Assembly: GCF_001898115.1 (NCBI RefSeq)
Contig: NZ_MKSQ01000015.1
Span: 6,274 to 70,273, forward strand
Origin: Bosea sp. 67-29
Lineage (GTDB): Bacteria > Pseudomonadota > Alphaproteobacteria > Rhizobiales > Beijerinckiaceae
Direction of reading: 5' to 3'
Length of the DNA: 64,000 nucleotides
Every line of letters begins with the position of its first letter. Position 1 is the stretch's first letter. Under the pieces are notes generated by a model, which was not told the origin of the DNA, ran no database searches, and worked only from the letters and a program-made list of their open reading frames with translations. Of the stretch, positions 3,179 to 26,612 are shown piece after piece. Both the position numbers and the translations under genes were made by a program.

Positions 3179-3352
3179 GACGGCCTCCCAAACGGAATGA
3201 GAACGGATCGATGCCCCCCTCAGCCCGGACGCACCAATTGGCCGAAATCCCGGGGAACGCAGCCAACATAGCGAGAGGCTGGTCATCAGCCAAACGAATG
3301 GTTATGATGCCTGACAACACGGATATTGATGAACTATCCGACGGGGATCGCC

Positions 3353-6112: not shown

Positions 6113-6859
6113 TCAGCCGCCTGCCCAATCGCCGAGCACGGCCTGCACGACCGCCAGCGCGGCAACCGCCGCCGTGTCGGCGCGCAGGATGCGCGGCCCC
6201 AGCGAGATCGCCAGCGTGTTCGGCCGGGCAGCGATCAGGCGCCGCTCGCCCTCCTCGAAGCCGCCTTCCGGTCCGATCAGCACCGCAAGCGGCGCCGGCC
6301 CGCAGGCCTGCAACGCCGTCATCGGGCTGCCCTGCTCCAGCCCCTCGTCGCAGAAGATCAGGAGGCGCCCGGGCTCCAGCGCCGCGAGGGCCGCATCGAG
6401 AGGCTTCTCGGCCGCGATCTGCGGCAGGCCGAGGATGCCGCATTGCTCGGCAGCCTCGATCGCGTTCGCCCGCATCCGGTCGAGGTTGAGCCGCGAGACC
6501 TGGGTCCGCCGGGTGAGGACGGGCTGAAGCGTGCCGGCGCCCATCTCGACGGCCTTCTGCACCATGTAGTCCAGCCGCGCATGCTTCAGCGGCGCGAAGA
6601 GATAATGCAGATCGGCCGGGGAAGGCTGCGGCCTGACCTGACGCTCGAGATCGAGCCGCGCCTGCTTGCGACCCTCCGGCGCCAGGCGCGCCAGCCATTC
6701 GCCGTCGCGCCCGTTGAAGACGAGGACGGCATCGCCGGGCCTCAGGCGCAGCACGTTGAGCAGATAGTTCGACTGGTCGCGCTCCAGCGGCAGCCCGCCA
6801 TCCTGCGCGAAGGCGGCGTCGACGAACAGGCGATGGCGCGCGAAATCGGGGGTGGACAT
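6113..6859 (-). CDS. rsmE: 16S rRNA m3U1498 methyltransferase
   Basis: QKAVEMG, EAAEQCG, IGPEGGF, LGPRILRADTA SPOUT motifs. Confidence 0.95.
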   Translation of the reverse strand: MSTPDFARHRLFVDAAFAQDGGLPLERDQSNYLLNVLRLRPGDAVLVFNGRDGEWLARLAPEGRKQARLDLERQVRPQPSPADLHYLFAPLKHARLDYMVQKAVEMGAGTLQPVLTRRTQVSRLNLDRMRANAIEAAEQCGILGLPQIAAEKPLDAALAALEPGRLLIFCDEGLEQGSPMTALQACGPAPLAVLIGPEGGFEEGERRLIAARPNTLAISLGPRILRADTAAVAALAVVQAVLGDWAGG

Positions 6860-21541: not shown

Positions 21542-22006
21542 TCAGCGCCGCTCGCGGAAAAACTCCCTCAGCAGCGCCGCCGCCTCGCTCTCGCGCAATC
21601 CGCCATAGACCTCGGGCGCGTGATGGCAGGTCGGGCTGTCATACAGCCTGACACCGTTCTCGACCGCCCCGCCCTTCGGATCGCCTGCGCCGAAATAGAG
21701 CCGCCGGATGCGGGAAAACGAGATCGCCGCCGCGCACATCGGACAGGGCTCGAGCGTGACGTAGAGGTCGCAGCCGATCAGGCGCTCGCTGCCGATAGCC
21801 GCACCGGCCAGCCGCAGCGCCAGCATCTCGGCATGGGCGGTCGGGTCCTTCAGCTCCAGCGTGCGGTTGCCGGCATGGGCCAGCACTGCACCGTCGCGCA
21901 TCACCACCGCGCCGACCGGCACTTCTCCACGCGCCGCAGCCGCCTTCGCCTCGTCGAAGGCCAGCGCCATGGCGTCGATGGCGGAGGATGGTTGCGGCTG
22001 CGGCAT
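21542..22006 (-). CDS. tadA: tRNA adenosine(34) deaminase / nucleoside deaminase
   Basis: GEVPVGAV, AHAE, TLEPCPMC, LREFFRERR. Confidence 0.9.
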   Translation of the reverse strand: MPQPQPSSAIDAMALAFDEAKAAAARGEVPVGAVVMRDGAVLAHAGNRTLELKDPTAHAEMLALRLAGAAIGSERLIGCDLYVTLEPCPMCAAAISFSRIRRLYFGAGDPKGGAVENGVRLYDSPTCHHAPEVYGGLRESEAAALLREFFRERR

Positions 22007-22129
22007 CGAAAACCCCTGCTTTGGTGCTCGCAGCGAGGAAAAGCCTCTGCTACAAGCGCCGGTCATAGCGAATAAGCGAGCCAGGCCTTTCCCGCAAAGC
22101 GGATGTGCTCGGCCGGCTCAGGAGCAGTC

Positions 22130-24202
22130 ATGAAAGACGACGACAACAACAGAGGTCGCGGCCCGGGCAAGGGCGGCGGCGCCGGCAGCCGTGGCGGCGG
22201 CAAGGGCTTCGGCGGCAAGGGGCCGGGAAGCAGGGGCGCGGGCGGGCACAGCTTCGGCGGGCGCGACGGCGAAAGCCGCGGCGGCGAGCGCAAGGGCTTC
22301 CGCGAAGCCGGCGAGCGCCGCTCTTTCCGCGGCCATTCCGAGGGCGAGGAGCGCCCGGCCCGCCGCTTCGGCAAGCCGACCGAGGGCAGCGCCCCGCGTC
22401 CGCGCCGGACGGAGGGCGAACGGCCGGCACGTTTCAAGCCCGAAGGCGAAGGCCGCCCCTTCCGCGAGCGGAGCGGCGAGGAGCGCCCCCGCCGCAGCGA
22501 TCGCGGCGGCGAGCGCGTCTTCCGGGAACGTCCGGAAGGTGCGGAACGGCCGGCACGCGGCGGCTTCGGCCGCCCTCCCCGTCGCCCGGAAGCCGGCGAC
22601 GGCGAGCGGCGCTTCGAGCGCCCTCGGCCGCAACGCGGCGAGCGCGATGCCACCCGCGGCGAGCGGCCGCGCCGCCCCCGCGAGGAGGCTCCCACCGAGG
22701 GCAAGCTGATCGCGGCGCAGGAGCCGGAGCGCATCGCCAAGGTGATGGCGCGGGCCGGCGTCGCCTCACGCCGCGACAGCGAGGCGATGATCGCGGAAGG
22801 CCGCGTCAGCGTGAATGGCACGGTGCTCGAAAGCCCGGCCTTCGACGTCAAGCCGACCGATGTCGTGCTGGTCGATGGCGAGCCGCTGCCGGCGCGCGAG
22901 CGCACGCGGCTCTGGCTCTACCACAAGCCGCGCGGCCTGGTGACGACCAATTTCGACCCCGAAGGCCGCCCCACCGTTTTCGAGGCGTTGCCGGAGGACC
23001 TGCCGCGCGTGCTCTCGATCGGCCGGCTCGACATCAACACCGAGGGCCTGCTGCTGCTGACCAATGACGGCGGACTGGCGCGGGTGCTGGAATTGCCGGA
23101 GACCGGCTGGCTCAGGCGCTACCGCGTGCGCGCCTTCGGCGAGGTGACGCAGGACAGGCTCGACACCGTGAAGGACGGCGTTGAGATCGACGGCGTGCAT
23201 TACGGGCCGGTGATCGCCCGCTTCGAGCGCCAGCAGGGCTTCAACACCTGGCTGACGGTCGATCTACGCGAGGGCAAGAATCGCGAAGTCAAGACCGTGC
23301 TCGAGCATCTCGGGCTCGCGGTCAACCGGCTGATCCGCATCTCCTTCGGCCCGTTCCAGCTGGGCGAGATCGAGGAAGGCGAGGTCGAGGAAATCCGCTC
23401 GCGCGTGCTGCAGGACCAGCTCGGCACCGAGCTGGCGGCCAGGGCCGGCGCCGATTTCGAGGCGCCGCGCCGCGACGCGCTGCCGAGCGCGCCACGCCGC
23501 GCGCCCGCCGCCGAGGATCGCCCGCGCCGGCGGCGCGAGACCGGTGACGAAGCGCATGAGACGAAGCGCGAGGCGGTGCGCGAGCTGCGCGGCGACAAAT
23601 CCTGGAATCGCGGCGTCTGGCGCGATGCCGAGACCGAGCCGCAGCGCGCCCGCAAGGCGCCGCCGCGCCGTGGCGCCGATCCGCGCGTCGAGCGCGAGGT
23701 TCGCGAGGCCACGGGTGCCGTCGAGCGCAAGCGCGACAAGGCCATCGCCGATCCCAAGGGCCGGCGCGTGCTGGTCGAGCGGATCAGCGCCCCTTCGCGC
23801 GAAGACCCTGCCGAGCCGGAAACCCGGCGCCGGCCGGATCGCAAGCCCCGCAACGAACGCGGCAGCGGCGAGGCACGCGCGCCACGGGCTCCGGTGCGCA
23901 GCGTCGGCGAAAGGCCCGCCCGGCGTTCGCGCGACGAAGCCGGTGGTCGTGACCGCGCCGATGAGCGCCCCTGGCAGGATCGCTCTCCACGCGGCGAGCG
24001 TGGCGAGCGTGCGCCCCGCGACGGGGCGGAGCGCCCGGCCCGCCGCTTCAGCGAGCGGCCGGCCGGCGACAAGCCGCACGGACGCAGCTTCGGCGACAAG
24101 CCTTTCGGCGGACGCCCCTCCGGCGGCAAGCCGGGCGGCGGTGGCGGCCGTCCGGGCGGCAGGGGCCCTCGCCCCGGCGGCCCGCGCGGCAAGCGCGACT
24201 AG
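22130..24202 (+). CDS. rluB: rRNA pseudouridine synthase (RluB/RsuA family) with long low-complexity tails
   Basis: S4 domain ERIAKVMARAGVASRR, YHKPRG, IGRLDINTEGLLLLTNDG, EGKNREV, LIRISFG. Confidence 0.85.
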   Translation: MKDDDNNRGRGPGKGGGAGSRGGGKGFGGKGPGSRGAGGHSFGGRDGESRGGERKGFREAGERRSFRGHSEGEERPARRFGKPTEGSAPRPRRTEGERPARFKPEGEGRPFRERSGEERPRRSDRGGERVFRERPEGAERPARGGFGRPPRRPEAGDGERRFERPRPQRGERDATRGERPRRPREEAPTEGKLIAAQEPERIAKVMARAGVASRRDSEAMIAEGRVSVNGTVLESPAFDVKPTDVVLVDGEPLPARERTRLWLYHKPRGLVTTNFDPEGRPTVFEALPEDLPRVLSIGRLDINTEGLLLLTNDGGLARVLELPETGWLRRYRVRAFGEVTQDRLDTVKDGVEIDGVHYGPVIARFERQQGFNTWLTVDLREGKNREVKTVLEHLGLAVNRLIRISFGPFQLGEIEEGEVEEIRSRVLQDQLGTELAARAGADFEAPRRDALPSAPRRAPAAEDRPRRRRETGDEAHETKREAVRELRGDKSWNRGVWRDAETEPQRARKAPPRRGADPRVEREVREATGAVERKRDKAIADPKGRRVLVERISAPSREDPAEPETRRRPDRKPRNERGSGEARAPRAPVRSVGERPARRSRDEAGGRDRADERPWQDRSPRGERGERAPRDGAERPARRFSERPAGDKPHGRSFGDKPFGGRPSGGKPGGGGGRPGGRGPRPGGPRGKRD

Positions 24203-24205
24203 GCG

Positions 24206-24766
24206 ATGCGGATCGTCGGCGGGCGCCTGCGCGGCCGGTCTCTGACCGGCCCGAAGCCGGGGATCGGCAGCATCCGGCCGACCTCGGACCGCTTGCGCGA
24301 ATCCCTGTTCAACGTGCTCGCCCATGCCTATGGCGACGCGGTCGAGGGCGCGCGCGTGCTCGACCTCTTCGCCGGCACCGGCGCGCTCGGCTTCGAGGCG
24401 CTTTCGCGCGGCGCGGGTTTCGCCCTTCTCGTCGATGACGGGATGGAGGCGCGCGGCCTGATCCGCGAGAACCAGATGGCGCTGGGCCTCGCCGGCTTCA
24501 GCCGCATCTTCCGGCGCGACGCGACGAAGCTCGGCCCGATCACCGGCATGGCGCCGTTCGGCCTGGTCTTCTGCGACCCGCCCTATCGCAAGGGGCTGGG
24601 CGAGAAGGCGCTCGCCTCCGCCCGCGGCGGCGGCTGGCTGAAACAGGATGCGCTCGTCGTGCTGGAGGAGGCGTCCGATGCCGAGATCGGCCTGCCCGAA
24701 GGCTTCGAGGAGCTGGAGCGGCGGGCCTATGGCGAGACGCAGGTGGTGATCCTGCGGGCGGAATAA
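24206..24766 (+). CDS. rsmD: 16S rRNA m2G966 methyltransferase
   Basis: MRIVGG, RPTSDRLRESLFN, LDLFAGTGALG.EALSRGA, DPPY. Confidence 0.95.
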   Translation: MRIVGGRLRGRSLTGPKPGIGSIRPTSDRLRESLFNVLAHAYGDAVEGARVLDLFAGTGALGFEALSRGAGFALLVDDGMEARGLIRENQMALGLAGFSRIFRRDATKLGPITGMAPFGLVFCDPPYRKGLGEKALASARGGGWLKQDALVVLEEASDAEIGLPEGFEELERRAYGETQVVILRAE

Positions 24767-24863: not shown

Positions 24864-25601
24864 ATGCCGTTCCCAAGACCGATAGAGCCGTACGGACACG
24901 CTCGGGCCGCTCGCCGCCACGCCCTTGCCTGTCAGCTTGCCGGCGAGCGCATGATGCGCGCACTCGCCTGTCTACAGGCGCTCGTCGAGAAGGGCGGTTT
25001 CAACCCCGAACAGCCGCGCGTACCGGCGGGCAGCCCCGAGGGGGGCCAATGGACAAACGGCGAGGGTGGCGGGCAGAGCCGCCAGCCCGGCATCGGCGAC
25101 AATGGTGGGCCGACGCTCGATCCGCCCAAGGATCCTTCGGCAGACAGGTCATCGAAGATCAAGGCGGCCAAGGCACTAGCCAAGGCTATCGCGCGACAGG
25201 CGCTGCGGCGCGCAGGCCCGATCGGCGCGGTCGTCACGGCAATCGAGGCCGCACACTGGCTTTATACGGAGTGGCCTTCGATCCGCTCCTATCAGGACGC
25301 GCCGAAGTCGTTCTCCGAGCTCCAGGAACAGGCCGGCAAGAAGCGGCCGGGCTATGATGATCATCACATCGTGGAGCAAGGCGCGGAATCGCGTGAGGGC
25401 TTTCCGCGTGCCCACATCGATGGCGCGGGCAATATCGTCAGCATCCCGCGATACAAGCACCATGAAATCACGGGATGGTACGCGACACGAAATGCCGAGT
25501 TCGGCAATCTCTCACCACGCGACTATCTCCGCGGACGAGGTTGGGGCGAACATATGGAAGTCGGCCGCGATGCCCTCCGGCGTTTCAAGGTGCTGAAATG
25601 A
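24864..25601 (+). CDS. Putative polymorphic toxin with HNH/AHH-like C-terminal nuclease
   Basis: N-terminal GFNPEQPRVPAGSPEGGQWT; C-terminal DHHIVEQ..GN..IP..KHHEI; GGAGA 10 nt before the ATG. Confidence 0.65.
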   Translation: MPFPRPIEPYGHARAARRHALACQLAGERMMRALACLQALVEKGGFNPEQPRVPAGSPEGGQWTNGEGGGQSRQPGIGDNGGPTLDPPKDPSADRSSKIKAAKALAKAIARQALRRAGPIGAVVTAIEAAHWLYTEWPSIRSYQDAPKSFSELQEQAGKKRPGYDDHHIVEQGAESREGFPRAHIDGAGNIVSIPRYKHHEITGWYATRNAEFGNLSPRDYLRGRGWGEHMEVGRDALRRFKVLK

Positions 25602-25969
25602 CTCCATCGAAGCTGAAGTCACTTACCTCCGCAGAACTCAAACAGCTTTTCGAAAATCTTTGCATTGCGCAATATGATGCTTTGGAAGGCAACGAGATCG
25701 CGAGTTTCAATCGCCGCTTCGACCGAATTCTCGCCATCGAAAACGAACTGAAATCGAGGCCCGGCGACCAAAGACGAATTCTAATGACATTGTTCGGGCA
25801 TCCGAACATGCAGGTCCGGCTGACGGCCGCCCGCGCCAACCTCGCAGTCGATTACATCGCTGCGCGCCGAGAACTCCAGGCAATCGTCGATGAACAATGG
25901 TTTCCGCAAGCTGGCGACGCGGGCATGACGCTTTGGAATCTCGATCGCGGCTTCTACCACCCGACCTGA
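25598..25969 (+). CDS. DUF2019-like protein, candidate immunity protein
   Basis: ATGA overlap with upstream stop; ELKSRPGDQRRIL..LFGHPNMQVRL.AA; visibly AT-richer than flanks. Confidence 0.7.
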   Translation: MTPSKLKSLTSAELKQLFENLCIAQYDALEGNEIASFNRRFDRILAIENELKSRPGDQRRILMTLFGHPNMQVRLTAARANLAVDYIAARRELQAIVDEQWFPQAGDAGMTLWNLDRGFYHPT

Positions 25970-25972
25970 GCG

Positions 25973-26452
25973 TCACCCCCGCCTTGCCGCCTCGATCGCG
26001 GCCACGTCGATCTTGCGCATGGTCATCATCGCGGTGAAGGCGCGCTTGGCCTCCTCGCCGCCGGCCGCCATGGCCTCGGTCAAGACACGCGGCGTGATCT
26101 GCCAGTTCACGCCCCATTTGTCCTTGCACCAGCCGCAGGCGCTTTCCTGGCCGCCATTGCCGACGATGGCGTTCCAGTAGCGGTCGGTCTCCGCCTGATC
26201 GTCGGTCGCGATCTGGAAGGAGAAGGCTTCGCTCTGCTTGAAGGTCGGGCCGCCATTGAGGCCGATGCAGGGGATGCCGGCCACCGTGAAATGGACGACC
26301 AGCGCGTCGCCCGCCTTGCCGGAGGGAAAATCGGTCGGCGCGCGATGGACGGCCTGCACCGCGCTGTCGGGAAAAGTCTCGGCGTAGAAGCGGGCAGCGG
26401 CTTCCGCATCCCTATCGTACCAGACGCAGATCGTGTTCTTGGCAATCGCCAT
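25973..26452 (-). CDS. VOC family protein (PhnB / 3-dmu-9_3-mt-like)
   Basis: AEAAARFY..TFP, GLNGGP.F, EAFSFQI, CGWCKDKWGVNWQI, AMMTMRKID. Confidence 0.9.
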   Translation of the reverse strand: MAIAKNTICVWYDRDAEAAARFYAETFPDSAVQAVHRAPTDFPSGKAGDALVVHFTVAGIPCIGLNGGPTFKQSEAFSFQIATDDQAETDRYWNAIVGNGGQESACGWCKDKWGVNWQITPRVLTEAMAAGGEEAKRAFTAMMTMRKIDVAAIEAARRG

Positions 26453-26612
26453 GGCTCTTCCCTTCAGGCTCGCGGATCGCTCCCGCCCGCCCCGGAGGCG
26501 CAAAGGCGATCACGCCCCCGGTCGCTGGCGAAGCATTCCGATGAAATGCATCGCGGCTGCCTGCGTTCCATCCGCCCCAGGCAAATCAGCGCCACGACGC
26601 GGGGCACCGAAC

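Follow-up and report, generated by a model that had tools for sequence, protein, structure and literature searches.

In a 64,000-nucleotide stretch of DNA from Bosea sp. 67-29 (contig NZ_MKSQ01000015.1; hereafter the window, in whose numbering all positions are given), we characterised two overlapping genes, open reading frame (ORF) A and ORF B, which encode a modular putative toxin and its predicted cognate immunity protein. We estimate a probability of roughly 55% that this pair is a virion-associated polymorphic toxin-immunity cassette, of the kind carried by phage heads or gene transfer agents (GTAs), that was relocated to a housekeeping locus in Bosea. The observations behind this proposal are the anatomy of ORF A, the linkage of its toxin domain to genes of the DUF2019 family, a constant module that is common to many proteins with diverse toxin tips, the GTA and phage-head context of its relatives, and the conserved synteny of the pair within Bosea.

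ORF A (24864..25601) and ORF B (25598..25969) both lie on the forward strand, both have an ATG start, and encode proteins of 245 and 123 amino acids. They overlap by the four nucleotides ATGA (25598-25601), an arrangement from which ORF B is predicted to be translationally coupled to ORF A on the same message. GC content is 0.648 in ORF A and 0.543 in ORF B, compared with 0.717 in the neighbouring rsmD gene and 0.691 across the 64-kb window. The two reading frames, their overlap, the AT-richer second gene, and the sequence strings quoted in the preliminary description of this DNA are all present. The division of ORF A into three modules that it had proposed agrees with an AlphaFold2 model, which predicts a helix at residues 11-43, a disordered Gly/Pro-rich region at residues 65-96 (predicted local distance difference test score, pLDDT, <50), a second helix at residues 93-143, and a compact C-terminal domain (pLDDT >90).

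Model and alignment together allow the protein to be divided into consecutive segments, all encoded on the forward strand. Residues 1-42 (24864..24989), which include the N-terminal helix, correspond by homology to the stretch located after the portal domain in portal::toxin fusions. Residues 43-64 (24990..25055; KGGFNPEQPRVPAGSPEGGQWT) form a conserved junction motif with the consensus K[YF]xP[DN][QE]PRVPAGxxxGGQWT. The disordered Gly/Pro-rich linker (residues 65-92, 25056..25139) contains the string GIGDNGGP (residues 76-83), in which G78, N80, G82, and P83 are nearly invariant among aligned close relatives of ORF A. The long helix (residues 93-143, 25140..25292) travels with the toxin domain; orphan fragments of relatives start within it, and in the prophage-like locus L187 an orphan toxin copy begins inside the helix at ...AAETASWLYDKLPY. 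Residues 144-245 (25293..25598) make up the compact domain, a putative beta-beta-alpha-metal (AHH-like HNH) nuclease that contains the strings DHHIVEQ (residues 166-172), GNIVSIP (189-195), and KHHEI (198-202). The codons of its key residues are at 25362-25367 (H167 and H168), 25431-25433 (N190), and 25458-25460 (H199).

The nearest database protein to ORF A is 99% identical and comes from a Bosea sp., and 249 homologues were found, mostly in Bosea. In the NCBI annotation of a 99%-identical protein, the product is 216 amino acids long and starts at the equivalent of M30 (24951). We favour the 245-residue form because conservation in homologues of 60-79% identity extends over residues 1-29 and because residues 7-77 align with the post-portal tail of portal fusions (L028, L116, L041, and L072). 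The wider family is large (1628 representative clusters at E<=1e-3, 151 at E<=1e-30), and the layout of motif, helix, and C-terminal domain is kept in all of the top 150 clusters. ORF A has no match in Pfam, NCBIfam, PADLOC, or PHROGs, so that no RHS, VgrG, PAAR, or MuF domain was detected in it, as had been noted from the sequence alone.

The junction motif connects ORF A to a much broader set of proteins. The window has a single match to a DNA pattern for PRVPAGxxxGGQW, none of 100 shuffled versions has any, and a scan of IMG/VR with this pattern recovered at least 120 viral contigs carrying at least 141 motif-bearing ORFs. Only seven of the 141 viral ORFs share the C-terminus of ORF A. Among the matches listed, the sequences after the motif fall into 49 clusters, with Pfam domains that include RNAse_A_bac (12), barnase-type Ribonuclease (5), and ART-PolyVal (3), together with Zeta_toxin, ADPrib_exo_Tox, ART, and MafB19-deam. 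A constant N-terminal module is followed by unrelated alternative C-terminal toxin domains, which is the architecture of polymorphic toxins. In contigs with several copies, the 189 nt running through the motif are 75% identical on average (maximum 94%), against 64±4% between contigs, and the 150 nt immediately after the motif are at background identity. Because identity collapses directly after the motif and the C-termini are diverse, we interpret the motif as the joint between the constant and variable parts of these proteins.

The sequences upstream of the motif are largely virion proteins. Of 60 N-terminal parts long enough for testing (again among the matches listed), 28 contain the Pfam domain Phage_portal, two Portal_Mu, two Phage_portal_3, one Phage_Mu_F, and one Peptidase_S78; PHROGs adds two more portals and one head-morphogenesis protein. 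The portal domain stops approximately 50 residues before the motif in the portal fusions. About half of the listed motif ORFs are short like ORF A, with fewer than 150 residues before the motif, and both forms occur on contig L041, where two short motif toxins flank a terminase gene upstream of a portal::motif::toxin fusion. The suggestion in the preliminary description that the motif recurs beside portal, head, or GTA genes of Alphaproteobacteria is supported and extended by the tabulated C-termini and neighbours. We infer that the motif may be a particle-loading tag, rather than a junction, cleavage site, or recombination handle only.

Two further observations concern the motif itself. On viral contigs L016 and L081, two proteins stop right after the motif (...GGQWTK) and have no toxin tip, and their N-terminal parts have no PHROGs match; such a bare C-terminal motif hints that it has a role of its own. 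On the 7.8-kb viral contig L007, two motif ORFs (3232-3270 and 6628-6666, reverse strand) are identical over the 339 nt compared, and look like a duplicated or circularly permuted assembly and not like two genes.

ORF B is a clear, full-length member of the Pfam family DUF2019 (PF09450; E = 7e-39, 132.4 bits against a cut-off of 23.3, 104 of 105 profile positions). It matches PDB entry 2I9C (RPA1889 of Rhodopseudomonas palustris, a structural-genomics entry) at E = 1.8e-32, and it is all-alpha and HEAT-like. No function is named in the Pfam family or the PDB entry, and the DUF2019 literature we found deals with lignin catabolism only, with none on function. ORF B has no match in NCBIfam, PADLOC, or PHROGs, and Pfam gives only DUF2019 and a weak HEAT match, with no helix-turn-helix or ribbon-helix-helix DNA-binding domain.

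We scanned genomes with the ORF A family, which yielded 143 relatives, of which 80 loci were kept; nearly all are from Hyphomicrobiales. A DUF2019 gene lies directly downstream of the toxin gene in 78 of the 80 loci, many of which have 2-5 tandem copies. Just after a capsid gene, the viral contig L021 carries three A-type cassettes along with five DUF2019 genes. The gene order in L187 is terminase, portal, A-type toxin, DUF2019, an orphan A C-terminus, two DUF2019 genes, a Gln_amidase toxin with Imm35, and a head-tail connector. Orphan tips, poly-immunity arrays, and neighbouring recognised toxin/immunity pairs are hallmarks of polymorphic toxins (PMC3482391). In the relatives of ORF A, a downstream putative immunity gene is found together with such orphan tips and arrays, and the toxin-immunity layout that had been read from the gene order in the window is recovered across these loci. 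The genomic context thus supports the designation of ORF A and ORF B as a putative toxin-immunity pair. DUF2019 is consistently the next gene after the AHH-like toxin, which makes immunity a reasonable proposal for the role of this family.

In L021 (2882-8436, forward strand), each of the three A-type cassettes appears split into an N-terminal and a C-terminal ORF in different frames. Possible explanations are genuine pseudogenes, programmed shifts, and misassembly of the near-repeats.

The C-terminal domain of ORF A (residues 144-245) was modelled alone by AlphaFold2 with a pLDDT of 93.6 and a predicted template modelling score (pTM) of 0.85. Its core consists of a strand containing YDDHH, a strand containing NIVSI, and a helix containing PRYKHHEITGW (beta 24-28, beta 51-55, and alpha 56-66 in domain numbering). 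Across 146 diverse representatives of the family, only H167, H168, and H199 are invariant, and G163, Y164, E171, N190, P195, W205, P218, and R219 are at least 90% conserved. As judged from the alignment, this His-His/Asn/His pattern is that of AHH-type HNH nucleases. The Pfam model AHH (PF14412) matches 10 of the 146 members weakly over the GYxHHIVE region (best E = 0.017). Foldseek searches of PDB and BFVD with the full-length and domain models list mostly HNH proteins, all with E >0.05, including Cas9 HNH domains, Cap5, TagI, T5 SciA, homing endonucleases, and McrA. The domain appears to share with the AHH clade an xHH[IV]VE-type signature followed by an Asn and then a His on a predicted beta-beta-alpha core. 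Unlike that clade, the ORF A family scores below the AHH cut-off and has a C-terminal helical extension with GGLSPRxYLRGK that is absent from AHH. The metal-site pattern and the predicted fold are consistent with the nuclease assignment made in the preliminary description, but membership of the AHH family does not reach significance by either the Pfam model or Foldseek; the domain is best described as AHH-like, and as lying outside AHH by the Pfam model. Signature and model together suggest that it most likely cuts nucleic acid.

The end of ORF A (residues 205-245, window 25476-25598; FGNLSPRDYLRGRGW...) shows a sub-threshold likeness to the C-terminal toxin-binding motif of Xre/MbcA/ParS antitoxins in 32 of the 146 members, and ParS (6d0h_D) is weakly listed by Foldseek for the domain. 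The likeness covers just 21 residues, only FGGLSPRxYLRGK, at 13 bits. We therefore rejected the identification of ORF A as a ParS/MbcA-type antitoxin and treat the stretch as a shared helical motif.

The relatives of the Bosea cassette point to phage heads and GTAs. Among the genes beside 52 non-Bosea cassettes, Pfam detects Phage_capsid (15), Peptidase_S78 (11), Phage_portal (4), GTA_TIM (2), Phage-tail_3 (2), and Rcc01698_C (2). A portal hidden Markov model built from the viral contigs matches at only 3 of the 80 loci and missed the GTA-type portals. Using tblastn, we found the cassette within a co-oriented series of portal, protease, capsid, and further genes ending in g15 (Rcc01698-like) in 28 of the 52 non-Bosea Hyphomicrobiales loci. 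In these 28 loci g15 lies approximately 8-10 kb beyond the capsid gene, and the genera are 58-78% identical to one another; in gene order, sizes, and conservation these clusters match the RcGTA-type head-tail cluster. The clusters occur in Nitrobacter, Pseudolabrys, Rhodopseudomonas, Afipia, and Xanthobacteraceae, among others. The cassette has no single insertion point: it can follow the portal, the capsid, or g15, or lie between protease and capsid. Additional motif ORFs with other C-termini are carried by several clusters (five in Rhodopseudomonas sp. NSM, L206), and the head gene block of RcGTA-like clusters seems to be a place where toxin cassettes dock in general. Solitary cassettes occur in other genomes too, some of them near PhdYeFM/PIN and HicAB pairs and an insertion sequence (IS) element.

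In six of these loci, from Nitrobacter, Rhodopseudomonas, and others (L159, L165, L166, L177, L182, and L206), an additional 3-6 kb separates the protease gene from the capsid gene and contains motif ORFs of non-A C-termini; in L166 this DNA also has additional DUF2019 genes. In L160 (5620-10600, forward strand), a 1660-residue stop-to-stop frame joins a g15 (Rcc01698/GTA_TIM-like) tail protein, the motif, and an A-type toxin domain. This is either a real tail-protein::toxin fusion or the product of a stop codon lost in the metagenome-assembled genome; if it is real, the module is not specific to portals.

Within Bosea, the cassette occupies a different kind of locus. In all 25 Bosea-clade genomes with both flanks on the contig, it is found in the order tadA-rluB-rsmD-[A-B]-mutL with the pair intact, and in all 25 ORF A has kept its entire length, including its own start codon and a complete N-terminal module. 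Compared with the copy in the window, identity in these genomes is 81-92% for RsmD, 83-92% for MutL, 49-77% for A, and 62-85% for B. The Spearman correlation with flank identity is 0.17 for B and 0.50 for A (partial tracking), compared with 0.82 for RsmD against MutL. GC content is low in every syntenic genome (0.60-0.68 for A and 0.52-0.63 for B, against 0.70-0.74 for mutL). The rsmD-mutL interval varies in gene content between genomes. Some Bosea genomes have extra DNA between rsmD and ORF A, which we considered as a possible further cassette and rejected, as none of its ORFs carries the motif; these ORFs are long and by eye look like membrane proteins and regulators. We also rejected the possibility that the cassette is a decaying prophage remnant, as the pair is intact in the 25 syntenic genomes. 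Cassette DNA is found in bioreactor and wastewater metagenomes as well. In a soil metatranscriptome, read-size contigs match positions 25345-25618 at 99-100%, a weak sign that the cassette is transcribed.

Virion-associated polymorphic toxins are a known kind of system. In the MuF toxins of temperate phages, a head-module protein encoded near the portal gene carries an exchangeable C-terminal toxin and is accompanied by small immunity genes (PMC3482391, PMC5576092, PMC11699363). Delivery of such toxins (Zhang et al. 2012, Jamet et al. 2017, Bxa/Apk2) with the ejected DNA has been proposed but is unproven (PMC5576092, PMC11699363). The ORF A family resembles them in having an exchangeable tip followed by an immunity gene, and one of the motif carriers is MuF-like. 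It differs in that ORF A lacks a MuF domain (Pfam, PHROGs), the commonest carrier is the portal itself, many members are short stand-alone proteins, and many copies lie in RcGTA-like clusters. A further difference is the sharp QPRVPAG...GGQWT joint; in the MuF paper we found neither a linker nor a conserved motif mentioned. The location of MuF toxins, in the head module beside the portal, is seen only in the relatives L041, L187, and L021 and not in the window. Likewise, an accessory-gene position in an RcGTA-like cluster is seen in 28 of the 52 non-Bosea relatives and not in the window. In the literature searched, we found neither the motif string nor any account of GTA clusters that contain toxin cassettes. 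The joint motif, the portal as main carrier, the short stand-alone forms, the assignment of DUF2019 as an immunity family, and the embedding in RcGTA-like clusters all appear to be unreported there.

There are parallels with CdiA-CT and Rhs toxins as well, in which a constant region ends in a short motif (VENN in CdiA, DPxGL in Rhs), sequences then diverge abruptly, and a downstream immunity gene and orphan tips are found. Among the matches listed, the tip seen most often behind the motif studied here is RNAse_A_bac, the RNase A domain of CdiA-CT. In contrast to those systems, the carrier is a virion protein and not a type V or type VI secretion substrate, and the motif is unrelated to VENN or DPxGL. 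A precedent for addressing a protein to a particle is provided by the capsid-targeting sequences of T4 internal proteins and the C-terminal tail of the HK97 prohead protease, in which a short peptide directs a passenger into the procapsid. Such a peptide can be removed by the head protease, and the passenger leaves with the DNA. The N-terminal module of ORF A, for which we propose a targeting role, has no sequence similarity to these peptides.

Under the virion-associated reading, we envisage the following mechanism. In phages, the module made up of N-terminal helix and motif joins a virion protein (mostly a portal, sometimes a MuF-like or other head protein) to an exchangeable toxin tip. In relatives of the Bosea pair, the toxin would be made alongside the head proteins and enter the particle through its N-terminal module, and ORF B would bind and neutralise it in the producer and its kin. 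The toxin would probably be freed by cleavage at or near the motif and then injected with the DNA, and recipients without a matching DUF2019 protein would be damaged. In Bosea, the cassette would have been transferred to the interval between rsmD and mutL, where it has stayed intact throughout the genus and would serve as immunity against incoming A-type toxins and possibly as a cargo that is loaded in trans into particles encoded elsewhere. A bolder version, which we put forward tentatively and regard as possible more than probable, is that the RcGTA-like GTAs of Hyphomicrobiales and related phage heads carry polymorphic toxins addressed by this module and would act as kin-discriminating weapons in addition to carrying DNA, with the Bosea cassette as cargo supplied in trans. 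Uptake would then be survived only by recipients that have matching immunity of the DUF2019 type.

A number of findings weigh against the virion-associated reading. As the preliminary description had stated, the cassette is solitary, with no portal, terminase, protease, capsid, g15, or GTA gene in the 64-kb window. With regard to the nuclease assignment, the highest AHH score seen, 14.8 bits, falls short of the cut-off of 22.3, and no family model reaches threshold for ORF A; neither the full-length nor the domain model has a Foldseek match with E <0.05 in PDB or BFVD, and PDB sequence and profile searches with ORF A returned nothing relevant. A tblastn search of ORF A against the cultured phages in INPHARED gave no match at E<=1. 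The motif has non-portal carriers too, including the apparent g15 fusion in L160, and may be a linker or recombination joint of general use and not an address tied to portals.

The lack of delivery genes in the window would suit an orphan cassette maintained for immunity or as a recombination reservoir, in which DUF2019 protects Bosea against A-type toxins that the phages or GTAs of relatives inject, and ORF A is never delivered but stays by addiction or as a spare tip able to recombine through the conserved module. The recombination-type junction marked by the motif fits this explanation, as do the orphan tips and extra immunity genes that are common in relatives and the identity of B, whose failure to track the flanks (Spearman 0.17 vs 0.82 for RsmD/MutL) suggests allele exchange. 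We nevertheless consider it unlikely, since ORF A retains its full length, start codon, and N-terminal module in 25 of 25 genomes and orphans of the CDI/Rhs type (CDI, contact-dependent inhibition) are usually without these; the transcript-like contigs over the toxin domain argue weakly in the same direction. As a solitary operon of two genes that overlap by 4 bases and that 25 Bosea genomes keep at a housekeeping locus, the pair could also be a chromosomal toxin-antitoxin or abortive-infection module that acts only in its own cell. ORF B would then restrain ORF A until stress or phage infection releases the nuclease, and phage heads under assembly might recruit the portal-tail-like N-terminus or be sensed by it. 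The proximity of other solitary copies to PhdYeFM/PIN, HicAB, and an IS element is in keeping with such a module, as is the 21-residue Xre/MbcA/ParS-like stretch found below threshold in 32 of 146 members. However, PADLOC gives no match and ORF B matches no DNA-binding domain; exchangeable tips, orphan tips, and poly-immunity arrays are hallmarks that toxin-antitoxin pairs lack, and more than half of the non-Bosea copies lie in GTA head-tail clusters, co-oriented with the head genes. We judge this explanation to be rather improbable, with both it and the orphan cassette conceivable for the Bosea copy specifically.

HNH proteins of the HK97 gp74 type assist the terminase in HK97-like phages, and the HH...N...H signature of ORF A, together with the terminase, portal, and capsid genes that adjoin its relatives, would be compatible with a packaging or DNA-processing factor of phage and GTA heads that is not a toxin, with DUF2019 as its regulator. 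This fits poorly, because unrelated toxin tips hold the same position after the motif (RNases, ADP-ribosyltransferases, Zeta toxin, and deaminases) and because the immunity genes form arrays; tandem DUF2019 copies and orphan tips are unlike a single packaging factor, and the Bosea copy is far from any packaging genes. We regard a packaging role as very improbable.

If the proposed pairing is correct, DUF2019, a family with a structure (2I9C) and no assigned role, would be an immunity protein family paired with an AHH-like toxin family, so far unclassified, of 1628 clusters. The constant module would mark toxins carried on virion proteins, mainly portals, extending the MuF-toxin idea, and could be used as a simple query to find and list them. 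Discussion of GTAs has usually centred on how they let kin exchange DNA. With toxins on board, GTAs would also discriminate among kin or kill, which would bear on why they are maintained; this GTA-toxin hypothesis is directly testable.

The genes that surround the cassette in the window are a tadA-like gene (21542-22066, reverse strand), an rluB-like gene (22103-24202, forward strand), an rsmD-like gene (24206-24766), a gene for a 176-residue VOC-type protein (25973-26503, reverse strand), and mutL (from 27089, reverse strand). Of the 25 syntenic Bosea-clade loci, L135 alone has the VOC-type gene (94.6% identical), and elsewhere nothing or different genes are found in its place. Bosea sp. Tri-44 has a second, divergent A-B cassette (36% identity over residues 1-245) approximately 230 kb from the syntenic one on the same contig (L148 and L176). 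The RluB-like pseudouridine synthase, whose Bosea orthologue has S4 and PseudoU_synth_2 domains, carries low-complexity extensions rich in Arg, Gly, Glu, and Pro at both ends, with GC content of up to 0.78.

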